DNA of 16,706 nucleotides, from assembly GCA_043804695.1 (NCBI GenBank), contig JAZDIV010000091.1, forward strand, positions 1 to 16,706, written 5' to 3'. The stretch comes from PVC group bacterium. GTDB lineage: Bacteria; Auribacterota; Erginobacteria; Erginobacterales; Erginobacteraceae. The notes under the pieces are model-generated. The model saw nothing but the letters and a program-made list of their open reading frames with translations, ran no database searches and was not told where the DNA came from. Made by a program: the position numbers and the translations under genes. Below, one piece after another: positions 1 to 16,706 of this stretch. The number at the start of each line of letters is the position of its first letter. Position 1 is the first letter of the stretch.

Positions 1-371
<371 letters not shown>

Positions 372-372
<1 letters not shown>

Positions 373-498
373 TTTATTTTCCTCCCGTCATCTTCCGCCT
401 ATTTTAAAATTAAACTGATTTTACCCATTTATTAAAACTATCTATCATACTCACATCACAACCAAGAGCCGGCGGAACATGACGGGAGGAAAATAAAA
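372..498. repeat. 28-bp inverted repeat (27/28 match) with 71-nt AT-rich spacer, overlapping the tuf SD and the A of its ATG
   Basis: 372-399 TTTTATTTTCCTCCCGTCATCTTCCGCC versus reverse complement of 471-498 TTTTATTTTCCTCCCGTCATGTTCCGCC. Confidence 0.95.
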
Positions 499-585
499 AC
501 GATAGTGATTCTCATATCTCCCCTCATCTCACCGTCCTTCCCTATGCCATCGCCTCGCGGTTAGTTGTTTGATCAACTGTCATTA

Positions 586-608
586 CTATTTTTCCGCAGG
601 AAAAATAG
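586..608. repeat. 10-bp perfect hairpin with c(GCA)g triloop
   Basis: CTATTTTTCC-GCA-GGAAAAATAG. Confidence 0.85.
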
Positions 609-614
609 CAGCAT

Positions 615-659
615 TTAAAATTCCCTGAGCCGGATTTTATCCGGCTCAGGGAATTTTAA
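615..659. repeat. 21-bp perfect hairpin overlapping the fusA stop codon
   Basis: TTAAAATTCCCTGAGCCGGAT-TTT-ATCCGGCTCAGGGAATTTTAA. No clear U-tract follows on the minus strand, so terminator function is uncertain. Confidence 0.9.
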
Positions 660-4044: not shown

Positions 4045-7000
4045 TTACTCGGCAATCTCCTTCGTCTCTTCGCCGTTTTCTCTCGCCATCAAGCGCTGTT
4101 TCTTCAGCTCCGGCAAGCCGTCGCCGCCGGGGATCAGGTGGCCCATGATCACGTTCTCCTTGAACCCCTTGAGCGAATCAACCTTGGAGCCGGCAGCGGC
4201 ATCGGTCAGGATCCGGGTGGTCTCCTGGAAGGAGGCGGCGGAGATGAAACTCTCGGTGGCCAGAGAGGCCTTGGTGATGCCGAGCAGAAGATTCTTCGAC
4301 CGGGCCGTCCCCGACAGCCCCTTGGCTTTGATCCGCTCGTTCTCCTTAAAAAACGTGAACCGGTCCACCTGCTCATCGTAGAGGAAATCGGTATCGCCCG
4401 GATCGGTCACCTGCACCTTGCTTACCATCTGCCGGACGATGGTCTCGATGTGCTTGTCGTTGATCTTGACCCCCTGCAGGCTGTACACCTTCTGGACTTC
4501 GTTGATCAGATACTCCTGAAGTCCCTCCATGCCGCTGACCTCGAGCATCTCCTGAAGAACGATCGGTCCGTCGGTCAGCTTCTGTCCTTTCTGCACCTTC
4601 TCGCCGTCATGAACGATGATGTGGGTCCCCAGGGGGATCAGGTGCTCCTCCGCCCGCTTGGTCTTGGGGTCTTTGACCAGGAGCGTGAGCTTTCCCCGTT
4701 TCCGCGGACCGAATTCCACTTCGCCGCTGATCTGGGCGATCGTGGCGGCGTCCTTGGGCCGGCGGGCCTCGAAAAGCTCGGCCACCCGGGAGAGCCCGCC
4801 GGTAATGTCCGCCGTCTTGGTCATCTTGCGCGGGGTCCGGGCTATTCTCGCTCCCGCCTCGACTTCGGCGCCGTTTTCGACTTCGACGATCGCGCCCGAG
4901 GGGATCAGGTGCGGCTCCCGGATGCGGTCGGGGTTTTTCGCGTCCACGATGTTGATCTGGGGATGGAGCTCGTGCCCCGTCATCGACTGGATGATCCGTT
5001 CGATCCTGTTCTTCGACCGCTGGACCTTCATCGTCTCGCCTTCGATGATGTCCACGTACTGAACGCGGCCGCCCGATCCGCTCAGGATGGGCGTGCTGTG
5101 CGGATCCCAGCGGACCAGCAGCTTCCCCTGCTTCACCTTCTCCCCGTCGGTCGCGAAGAGCTCGGAGCCGACCTCGATCTTGTAGCGCGCCTGTTCCCGG
5201 CCGTCCTTTCCCGCGGAGTCAAACAGGGAGATGGATCCCCCGGACTTCAGAACCAGATAGCGCCCCTCTTCTCCCTTGACCGTCTCCAGATGCTGATCAT
5301 ACCGGACAACCCCATCCTGTCCGGCCAGAATCTCAGGCTGCCGGGTGAAGATGCTGGCCGTGCCCCCGATATGGAAGGTGCGCATGGTGAGCTGGGTCCC
5401 CGGCTCGCCGATGGACTGGGCGGAGATGATCCCCACCGCGTCGCCCAGGCTGCTCATCCGCTGGTTGGCCAGATTCCGGCCGTAGCAGAAGGAGCAGACC
5501 CCTTCCGGGGCCTCGCAGGTCAGGATGGAACGGATCCGGACCTCCTCCACCCCGTTGTCTTCGATCTCCCGGGCCAGCTCGGAGGTGATCTCCTGTCCCC
5601 GCCTGACGATGACCTTCCCGTCCCGCCCCTTCACCGTCTCCTGGCTGACCCTTCCCTTAATCCTCTCGCTGATCGGGATGACCACGTCTCCCTCCTCCAC
5701 CAGGGACCTGACCCGGCGACCTTTGAAGGTACCGCAGTCTTCCATGCTGATGATGACGTCCTGGGCGACATCGACCAGACGGCGGGTTAAATATCCTGAA
5801 TCCGCCGTCTTCAGGGCGGTGTCGGCCAGTCCTTTCCGGGCGCCGTGGGTCGAGATAAAATATTCCAGAACGCTCAGCCCGTCCCGGAAGTTGGAAATGA
5901 TGGGATACTCAATGATCTCCCCCGAGGGCTTGGCCATCAAGCCCCTCATACCCGCGATCTGCTGGATCTGTTCCATGCTGCCCCGGGCGCCGGAGTCCAT
6001 CATCATGTACAGGGGATTCAGCCCCGGTTCGCCGTCCGCCTGGAGATCCTCGAAAACCCGGACCGAGAGGTCGCGGGACGCCCGGGACCAGATGTCCAGC
6101 TTCCGGTTGTAATTTTCCTGGGCGGTCAGCTTCCCCGCATCGTATGAACGTTGGGCGGCGGCCACCTCCCGGCCCGCCCGGCGGATGATGTCTTCCTTGT
6201 CCTTCGGCTGGACCATGTCCTTCATGCCCAGCGAGAGCCCGGACCAGGTCGCGCTCTCGAACCCCATGTCCTTGATCCGGTCGAGAACGTGAACCGTCTC
6301 CTCGTGCCCCACGATTGCGTAGCAGCGGGCGACGATCTCGCTGAGGTCTTTCTTTCCCACCTGCTGATTGATGAAAGGGATCTCGGGGGGGAAGATCTGG
6401 TTGAAGATCACCCGGCCGGCGGTGGTGCAGTCCTTCCACTCGGAAGAGGGAAGGGCATTGCCTTTGGCATCGGTTTCGGCCAGCTGTTTCGTGATCCCCT
6501 GAATTTTGATCGGCTGGTGAAGAGTGATCGCTTTCTCGGCCAGGGCGAGCAGGACTTCATTTTCATCGGTAAAAGGCTTCAGCGCCGTTTCGTCTCCCGG
6601 GGCGGACCGGGTCAGGTAATAACACCCCAGCGCGATGTCCTGGGTCGGGTTCGCGATCGGTTCTCCGCTGGCCGGCGAAAAGATGTTATTGGGCGCGTAC
6701 ATCAGGAGCCGGGCTTCCAGCTGGGCTTCATTGGAAAGCGGGACGTGGACCGCCATCTGGTCTCCGTCAAAATCGGCGTTGAAGGCGGTGCAGACCAGTG
6801 GGTGGATCCGGATCGCTTTTCCCTCGACGAGGATCGGATCAAAGGCCTGGATCCCCAGCCGGTGCAGGGTCGGGGCGCGATTGAGAAGAACGGGATGATT
6901 CTGGATGACTTCATCGAGAACGTCCCAGACCTGCTTCTCCTGCTTTTCAATCATCTTCTTGGCGGAGCGGATCGTGTGGACGTATCCCAGTTCCTTCAGC

Positions 7001-16433: not shown

Positions 16434-16512
16434 GTGTAAAGTTGAAAGAGTAAGGTATAAAGACGCCGAATACGGCGGCGCCTTTCCACTTTCCACTTTA
16501 CACATTACACTT
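16434..16512. repeat. Imperfect foldback of heptamer arrays between tuf and rpmG
   Basis: GTGTAAA GTTGAAA GAGTAAG GTATAAA ... CGCCG-AATA-CGGCG ... CTTTCCA CTTTCCA CTTTACA CATTACA. Confidence 0.7.
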
Positions 16513-16706
16513 ATTCAATGATCTCGGTTACGGTTCCGGCGCCGACGGTGTGGCCGCCCTCCCGAATGGCGAACCGCAGGCCCTTCTCCATCGCGATCGG
16601 CGTGATCAGTTCCACCGTCATCGCCACGTTGTCCCCCGGCATCACCATCTCCACGCCCTCCGGCAGCTGTACCGTCCCCGTCACGTCCGTCGTCCGGAAG
16701 TAAAAC
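16511..16706 (-). CDS. tuf: Elongation factor Tu, C-terminal part of a second copy (runs off the window end)
   Basis: Manual translation [26 protein letters not shown]...[26 protein letters not shown]. Confidence 0.98.

Follow-up and report, generated by a model that had tools for sequence, protein, structure and literature searches.

A long leader helix over the tuf ribosome-binding site, a probable translational lock in the family Erginobacteraceae

The window analysed here is the whole 16,706-nt stretch of contig JAZDIV010000091.1 (C91) of assembly GCA_043804695.1, from a PVC group bacterium of the family Erginobacteraceae. The assembly has 155 contigs and represents a 2.97-Mb genome that is 88% complete. 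On the minus strand, the gene for EF-G, fusA (positions 2682-646; TIGR00484, E 1.2e-270), is followed by a 273-nt spacer and then by tuf, the gene for EF-Tu, which runs from its ATG at 372-370 to the contig end, where it is truncated (positions 1-372; ORF list; NCBIfam TIGR00485, E 2.9e-71, profile positions 1-123). The 3' end of the other tuf copy lies on the same strand at 16511-16705 (positions 331-394 of the 394 of the EF-Tu profile), so that the contig has a tuf repeat at both ends. Between the two copies are tRNA-Trp, secE, nusG, rplA, rplJ, rplL, rpoB, rpoC, rpsL, rpsG and fusA. The 5' part of the second copy was located on contig C64, after tRNA-Thr(UGU), tRNA-Tyr, tRNA-Gly and tRNA-Thr(GGU), a gene order which we take to be that of the E. 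coli tufB operon.

The stretch before tuf in the window (minus strand, 607-360) was duplicated before the second copy, with 98% identity to C64:4237-4484. The duplicated stretch takes in both arms of the helix described below, and the second tuf copy therefore shares the leader, with one mismatch more than the window copy in its 5' arm. The leader common to both copies opens with an A/U-rich mini hairpin with a 10-bp stem (586-608, minus strand), which belongs to a dispersed family with 55 copies in the genome. Across the fusA stop codon, repeat search and folding revealed a perfect 21-bp hairpin followed by UUUUAAAU (615-659, minus strand). This hairpin is terminator-like by eye and was absent from the output of the site scan.

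The start region of tuf is preceded on the mRNA by its own complement. The 3' arm (372-399, minus strand) consists of GGCGGAAGAUGAC, the Shine-Dalgarno (SD) sequence GGGAGG (386-381), the spacer AAAAUAAA and the A of the AUG, and the 5' or anti-SD arm (471-498, minus strand) is UUUUAUUUUCCUCCCGUCAUGUUCCGCC. A preliminary description of this locus, made from the sequence alone, had reported 28-bp antisense arms with one G-G mismatch that take in the SD, the A of the AUG and the spacer in between; the repeat search agreed in every respect, with 27 of the 28 positions (96%) complementary and G478 opposite G392 as the single mismatch. The 71-nt loop between the arms (400-470, minus strand) is as AT-rich as had been stated (27% G+C), with the hexamers TATGAT and TAAAAT on the minus strand and no well-spaced -35. 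When folded, as that description had proposed, the 135-nt hairpin (368-502, minus strand) reached -52.3 kcal/mol compared to -26.2 ± 3.4 kcal/mol for 200 shuffles, none of which was as good (z = -7.8). The fold of a 321-nt spacer segment gave z = -8.6, with none of 100 shuffles as good.

Across the genome, 2844 candidate starts with an SD were scanned for a sequence upstream that complements the start region with at most one mismatch, and the two tuf leaders ranked first (28 nt) and joint third (20 nt) by length. A complement of at least 16 nt was found at 18 of these starts, and the reversed, non-complemented control never exceeded 15 nt. The complementarity of the arms is far beyond chance. 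Other start-proximal hairpin families were present in the same scan. Within their own genome, the arms and loop matched the two tuf leaders only; a MITE or dispersed hairpin repeat was therefore rejected, the mini hairpin at 586-608 being the only dispersed element. At gathering score, only tRNA passed in a search of the whole window against Rfam 15, and when the cut-off was relaxed to E = 1 for positions 300-720, nothing but generic models of long hairpins (microRNA precursors) appeared, with 17-30 bits against cut-offs of 60-171. An antisense gene using the inverted SD copy was also rejected, as no suitably placed start codon was seen by eye in the source genome, G001b, G003 or G006. None of 24 public sequencing runs screened for the leader contained more than 0.10 of the sampled words, and reads mapped from four of the runs covered only the conserved coding part of tuf (300-383), came from other organisms and gave zero coverage of 384-700.

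The tuf upstream regions of the order, represented by 14 species genomes, were compared by an ungapped pairing search, and the helix was present in close relatives. In G001, which belongs to the same genus, both tuf copies had it (24/24 and 25/25 bp), with distal sequences that differed between the copies (GUCAUCUCC/GGAGAUGAC versus GGAAUGUUCU/AGAACAUUCC). G003 had a 29-bp helix, with CCUCCUGAAAUG/CAUUUCAGGAGG in place of CCUCCCGUCAUG/GAUGACGGGAGG; G006 paired at 23/24 bp, with UUUUCUUUU/AAAAGAAAA in place of UUUUAUUUU/AAAAUAAAA; G007 had a 15-bp core; and in G005 and G002 the helix was degenerate and weaker. Pairing was limited to 10-11 bp in G013, from another family, and no helix was found in the tuf upstream regions of G004 (fusA-tuf with a short spacer), G010, G012 and G011. 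In minimum free energy folds, the SD lay within the helix in all leaders of the order that were folded, except G004 and G013b. An exact-pattern scan added four distinct metagenome leaders, L133, L134 (= L138), L135 and L136 (= L137). Among 185,579 species genomes, a set to which the source genome possibly does not belong, the same pattern matched only G001 (twice), G003, G006, G007 and one Lactobacillus sequence, the last being a chance match that lies between divergent genes.

Beyond the order, 57 tuf upstream regions from 38 genomes in 17 other families of the phylum scored at most 14, compared to 15-29 in the family; 60 regions, a subset of the listed tuf places, had been fetched and three were too short. 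Seven further tuf upstream regions scored at most 13. Based on these BLAST-type, pattern and ungapped-pairing scans, the helix appears to be restricted to the family Erginobacteraceae, where it occurs in three genera. The loop was 68-74 nt long in all leaders, if about seven diverged arm bases per side are discounted from the 88 nt of G007, whereas its sequence defied alignment between genera and also between the two G001 copies. On the evidence of the sequences compared, the leader is not an assembly artefact, since the second tuf copy, relatives from three genera and four metagenome contigs carry it.

Only one tuf was found in each of G002, G003, G005, G006 and G007, and the helix sits on each of them; in these genomes fusA is followed by rpsJ and rplC (NCBIfam for G005, by eye for the other four). 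A structure on the only detectable tuf of five relatives is not a device for one of two copies. The dosage control of one of two tuf genes that had been suggested is thus contradicted by the single-copy relatives, as well as by the source genome and G001, in which both copies carry the helix.

Covariation, which had been proposed as a check in the relatives, was evident in the aligned leaders. In a set of 11 leaders, 87.2% of cells paired and 12 of the 28 pairs had changed on both sides, and the covariation score was reached by none of 500 shuffles. With 13 leaders, 90.4% of cells paired, 13 of the 28 pairs had changed on both sides, and the covariation score was 0.330 compared to 0.145 ± 0.018 in shuffles, again with 0 of 500 reaching it; these shuffle counts overstate the significance, as the sequences are few and related, and the structure was derived from one of the aligned sequences. 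When the partner was offset by 1-3 columns, 49-62% of cells paired. The arms also form a DNA palindrome, in which template switching can yield apparently compensatory changes.

Three details of the alignment bear on the level at which the helix is maintained. The paralogous leaders of G001 have different distal stems, yet each is perfect. A U.G wobble is retained in G003, L133, L134 and L136 despite their diverged loops. L135 represents a one-sided intermediate (A opposite G) of the change from UUUUAUUUU/AAAAUAAAA to UUUUCUUUU/AAAAGAAAA, which is complete in G006. Together, these details speak for selection acting on the RNA of the tuf strand. With a conserved helix over the SD and start, and compensatory changes among orthologues, the leader is, as far as sequence comparison can tell, an SD-sequestering one.

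The helix, its conservation and its covariation are observations, from which we infer repression, and we consider it probable, at roughly 60%, that the leader helix is a functional RNA lock on the translation of tuf. The pyrimidine-rich upstream arm, with a CCUCC core as in the tail of 16S rRNA, would pair over 24-29 bp with the SD, continuing through the A-rich spacer to the A of the start codon. As the SD and start would be buried in this helix, transcripts with both arms are proposed to be closed to the 30S subunit. Of the first model put forward in the preliminary description, the masking of the ribosome-binding site by the transcript fold is supported by conservation and covariation, while cleavage by RNase III, a transcript start in the loop and dosage control of one copy are not.

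Locked transcripts would probably be the normal ones, with tuf located behind tRNA-Thr(GGU) and its promoter upstream of the tRNA. No sigma-70-like site was detected on the tuf strand between 300 and 720, and a scan of 14 leaders for a loop promoter yielded nothing strong or positionally conserved, which tells against the earlier suggestion that transcripts start inside the loop. The best loop candidates matched 8-10 of 12 positions with a weak -35 and spacers of mostly 15, 18 or 19 nt, only G001a having 17, and there was no candidate in G001b, G005, G006 or G007. Conspicuous promoters were found elsewhere: TTGACA/TTGACG-16-TACCAT/TAAGAT with TG upstream of tRNA-Thr in G010 and G012, TTGCCA-17-TACATT before rpsJ (by eye), and, on C64, TTGACA-16-TAGTAT with TG, 270 nt upstream of tRNA-Thr(GGU), the last tRNA before tuf. 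With no convincing promoter in the loop and conspicuous ones elsewhere, tuf is probably co-transcribed mainly with tRNA-Thr, and its normal transcript would therefore contain both arms. The fusA-linked copy, behind the 21-bp hairpin and UUUUAAAU, may depend on read-through.

These data also bear on the best surviving alternative, in which the working tuf mRNA starts within the loop, from a promoter or through endonuclease cleavage and an exonuclease, and the arm silences only read-through transcripts from the tRNA genes or fusA. In the variant with cleavage, the A/U-rich loop is cut and a 3' exonuclease then removes the 5' arm. The base composition of the source loop (27% G+C), its TAAAAT ending 45 nt before the ATG, the hexamers TAAAAT, TAAACT and TAAATT at -44, -42 and -53 in G001a, G002 and G003, and the TTGACG and TTGACC boxes in the loops of G006 and G007 are all compatible with such a start, and the strong hairpin after fusA could mean that the fusA-linked copy needs one of its own. 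Against this, the promoter scan of 300-720 found no site on the tuf strand and the loop candidates are weak and missing from four leaders, whereas the genuine promoters nearby, such as TTGACA-16-TACCAT, TTGCCA-17-TACATT and TTGACA-16-TAGTAT, are obvious. Loops that cannot be aligned between genera, or between the G001 copies, would be unexpected for the promoter of a top-expressed gene, and selection for 24-29 bp merely to silence read-through seems weak. A start within the loop is thus considered unlikely.

Slightly less likely still is the absence of any regulatory function, with the helix as a by-product of the dynamics of intergenic hairpins and palindromes, kept symmetrical by DNA template switching. 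The genome does contain other start-proximal hairpin families and 55 copies of the mini hairpin, and the loss of RNase III (see below) would lift a cost of long RNA duplexes. The helix nevertheless occupies the orthologous site in three genera and in metagenome relatives, while flanks and loops have diverged beyond alignment, and its arms are found nowhere else in the genome. The individually perfect but different distal stems of the G001 paralogues are also difficult to reconcile with a by-product, and the retained U.G and the one-sided intermediate argue against frequent arm-to-arm correction.

Invertible promoters, such as fimS, hin and other invertons, have inverted repeats around a short A/T-rich segment upstream of a gene, an arrangement that the tuf leader resembles and that underlies the second model of the preliminary description, in which the two arms serve as recombination sites for flipping the 71-bp core. 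Recombination sites, too, would be expected to show covarying arms. Contrary to this model, the 16.7-kb window contains genes of translation and transcription only, with no recombinase gene, and the core is very short, with no promoter detected in it. All comparable assemblies have one orientation: the five loop pairs that could be significantly aligned (G000a-b, G006-G007, G006-G005, G007-G005 and G007-G002) were all forward, and the loops of G003, L133 and L134 were co-linear. Moreover, the U.G wobble is retained, and the structure sits on the only tuf found in five relatives. Inversion therefore appears very improbable.

RNase III (TIGR02191) was detected in none of the 14 genomes of the order, eight of which are at least 90% complete, nor in any of nine genomes of family f7, compared to 52 of 79 genomes of the phylum, equivalent to 52 of the 56 outside the order and f7, mostly at E near 1e-70. 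The profiles PF14622 and PF00636 had no match in the source genome (88% complete), and the control genomes of the search gave the expected response. Incompleteness cannot account for 14 misses, and a very divergent enzyme is conceivable. A processing site at which RNase III releases or destroys tuf mRNA, for which a 27/28-bp duplex would be a textbook substrate, is thus as improbable as inversion, given the contrast between 0/14 in the order and 52/56 elsewhere and the two Pfam misses, and the same result leaves the earlier proposal of RNase III cleavage as a means of release with no detectable enzyme. With RNase III undetected in the order, the duplex is probably stable in the cell, and the loss of the enzyme may have let such helices persist.

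If the lock is functional, the absence of detectable RNase III implies that the duplex is not cut, and it would have to be opened or outrun. A helix of about -50 kcal/mol on the start of one of the most abundant proteins is counter-intuitive unless release is efficient. In a first possible route, the helix would be melted by a ribosome as it translates a short upstream ORF that extends through the 5' arm, and tuf initiation would scale with the ribosome occupancy of the arm and rise when elongation is slow. In a second, the nascent 5' arm would first pair with a purine-rich tract upstream, and ribosomes would have a limited period of access until the stronger lock is in place. By either route, EF-Tu synthesis would depend on ribosome traffic, the same logic as in the autoregulation of Salmonella tufB.

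For the first route, a putative ORF at 456-527 (minus strand; ATG 527-525, 23 codons, TGA 458-456) spans the whole 5' arm, with GGAAGGA before its ATG and a second in-frame ATG at 515-513. Of 13 leaders, 10 have an ORF with an ATG start that runs across the CCUCC core, and the other three (G006, G005 and G002) have GTG or TTG starts only. Seven leaders read the core as CCU-CCN, that is Pro-Pro, and the peptides consequently contain FYFPP. When an SD-like site was required (duplex of -6 kcal/mol or lower), the ORF was recovered in G000, G003 and G007, compared to 6-17% of shuffles per leader; with the requirement dropped, about half of the shuffles (50%) had an ATG ORF entering the arm. From genus to genus the frame is not the same, both copies in G001, of the same genus, have poor SD-like sites (-3 kcal/mol), and the differences between the upstream peptides of close relatives are mostly non-synonymous (by eye). 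The ribosome-binding site of the ORF had an unpaired probability of 0.31-0.59, about the leader average. The conserved ATG sits in the stem of a small hairpin, and this stem could explain its conservation. Considering the variable frame, the weak SD-like sites of G001 and the three leaders that have no ATG, the upstream ORF is not convincing.

For the second route, the candidate anti-anti-SD is a purine-rich tract (511-544, minus strand), which also provides the SD of the upstream ORF and could pair with the 5' arm as long as the 3' arm is still to be transcribed. When eight leaders were folded only as far as the base preceding the 3' arm, the 5' arm was predicted in all of them to pair through 12-22 nt with the purine-rich tract upstream, and through none with the loop, and the duplex between the tract and the 5' arm was better than in shuffles at p < 0.05 in four of eight leaders. 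A cross-genome control revealed no lineage-specific pairing of the tract with the variable portion of the 5' arm, the own partner ranking 4, 2, 7, 6, 3, 1 and 1 out of 7. The idea that the tract descends from a direct repeat of the SD region by divergence was rejected, as local alignments were no better than those of shuffles, of which a fraction of 0.10-0.69 scored equally high or higher.

A more specific form of the lock is doubtful. It would be an elongation-speed sensor for EF-Tu homeostasis, in which the Pro-Pro encoded in the CCUCC core slows the ribosome while it is on the strand that masks the SD. A shortage of ternary complex (or of EF-P activity) would make the ribosome dwell on the arm, and the ribosome-binding site of tuf would stay open, and such a 28-bp feedback device could have evolved only because the lineage lost RNase III.

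To our knowledge, enterobacterial tufB is the only case in which it is understood how EF-Tu is matched to the number of ribosomes. The leader described here would be an independent and far more drastic design in the corresponding place of the operon, from a phylum of the PVC group that has hardly been studied, with covariation sufficient to define a candidate RNA motif. It also joins the absence of RNase III across an order with the occurrence, on essential mRNAs, of perfect RNA duplexes of great length. Should the model of ribosome traffic be true, the leader would represent a simple translational sensor with two arms that synthetic biology could use.

Among known regulators, repression by pairing of the SD is common to RNA thermometers and translational riboswitches. 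The tuf helix, at about -50 kcal/mol, cannot melt with temperature as thermometers do, and unlike riboswitches the leader has no conserved loop resembling a ligand pocket and no Rfam match. In translational attenuation of the ermC/cat type, the SD downstream is masked by a strand that a leader ORF overlaps, and it is freed when a ribosome occupies that strand. The candidate short ORF before tuf likewise overlaps the masking strand, but the attenuators have four segments and a conserved stalling peptide, whereas here there are two arms and neither peptide, frame nor start is conserved.

The statement in the preliminary description that no tuf regulator of this form has been described held for the literature searched on tufB autoregulation and on anti-Shine-Dalgarno leaders of tuf/EF-Tu, where no such helix was found, the Salmonella tufB leader being a related precedent. 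In the available excerpt of PMC12360218, that leader is classed as 'uORF-like' and senses EF-Tu through the movement of the ribosome; the autoregulation of tufB in Salmonella and E. coli is attributed to Brandis, Bergman and Hughes (2016) in the excerpts of PMC12360218 and PMC10882980. The likeness is one of layout and logic, and a sequence relationship is not claimed: the same gene follows four tRNA genes ending with tRNA-Thr(GGU) and, in those excerpts, the region bound by the ribosome is closed by an mRNA structure close to the start, with the balance of open and closed forms proposed to sense EF-Tu. As far as the excerpts go, tufB differs in its short competing stem-loops, in the involvement of early tufB codons and in the implication of Rho, whereas the helix here has 24-29 bp, brings in an arm from about 100 nt upstream, is confined to the leader, and guards every tuf copy, whether there are two or only one.

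The maturation gene of phage MS2 provides a second precedent, since its SD is paired to an upstream complementary sequence and this pairing is delayed by a metastable hairpin, according to the excerpt of PMC4615214. The tuf leader resembles the Levivirus leader of that excerpt in the long-distance pairing of the SD across a structured insert of similar size, and an earlier partner for the upstream arm is predicted here as well, one that covariation does not support. In the same excerpt, only 7 nt of SD are paired in a viral RNA whose gene has to be expressed at a very low level; the tuf helix has four times that length and sits on one of the most expressed cellular genes. The tuf lock would work like these known SD-masking leaders, and compared to the leader of tufB its distinguishing features are a long-range helix of 24-29 bp, the guarding of all tuf copies, and a setting in a lineage with no detectable RNase III.

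The copy of tuf downstream of fusA (EF-G gene; minus strand, 646–2682) differed in its distribution within the order. In G002, G003, G005, G006 and G007, five other genomes of the order (regions L127–L131), fusA was followed by rpsJ-rplC and not by tuf, and a clear promoter-like sequence, TTGCCA-17-TGnTACATT, with an A/T-rich upstream tract, was found upstream of rpsJ. This gene order indicates that the fusA-tuf copy of the window's genome, G000, and of its congener G001 is a lineage-specific duplication, leader included. The loop of the leader (400–470) and its counterparts in relatives were kept within 68–74 nt in length, and their sequences could not be aligned across genera, nor between the two copies of G001. 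Both ends of the contig (positions 1 and 16,706) lay inside tuf, and C64, the contig carrying the second tuf copy, ended at the same tuf position at which the window's contig starts. The tuf repeat is where the assembly broke.

Further sequence elements surrounded the two copies. A mini hairpin, ATTTTTCC-N3/4-GGAAAAAT, located at 586–608 of the window and at position 4238 of C64, marked the start of both G000 tuf leaders, and was found 3′ of tRNA-Thr in relatives. There were 55 sites with this hairpin in the G000 genome versus none for the reversed control. It is not a classical terminator, as on either strand a U-run lies 5′ of the stem and an A-run 3′ of it. The fusA stop codon lay within a perfect hairpin at 615–659, which had a 21-bp stem and a loop of 3 nt and was followed by UUUUAAAU; similar hairpins occurred downstream of fusA in G001 (copy b), G004 and G013 (copy a). 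On C64, a promoter-like TTGACA-16-TAGTAT with a TG was located in the ∼520-nt gap from tRNA-Gly to tRNA-Thr(GGU) (positions 1127–1154 of the C64 stretch L002).

Neither the window's order (14 genomes) nor f7, another family of Auribacterota (nine genomes), yielded any RNase III gene in searches with TIGR02191, while 52 of the 56 remaining genomes of the phylum encoded one. PF14622 and PF00636 likewise gave no RNase III match in the G000 genome. For a nearly universal enzyme, this pattern of profile matches looks like a loss across the whole lineage.

Hairpins near start codons were also observed elsewhere. In five genomes of genus g11 (L120–L124), the tuf SD was covered by a 14-bp A-U/G-U hairpin with a loop of 19–20 nt; these hosts belong to f7, the other family without RNase III. 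On contig C32 of G000 (∼6528–6567), a perfect 18-bp hairpin, UUUUAUUUUCCUCUCCUC / GAGGAGAGGAAAAUAAAA, lay between the end of a putative ABC-ATPase-like gene and the RBS of a putative hpf-like gene (both named by eye), and was similar to the tuf arms.
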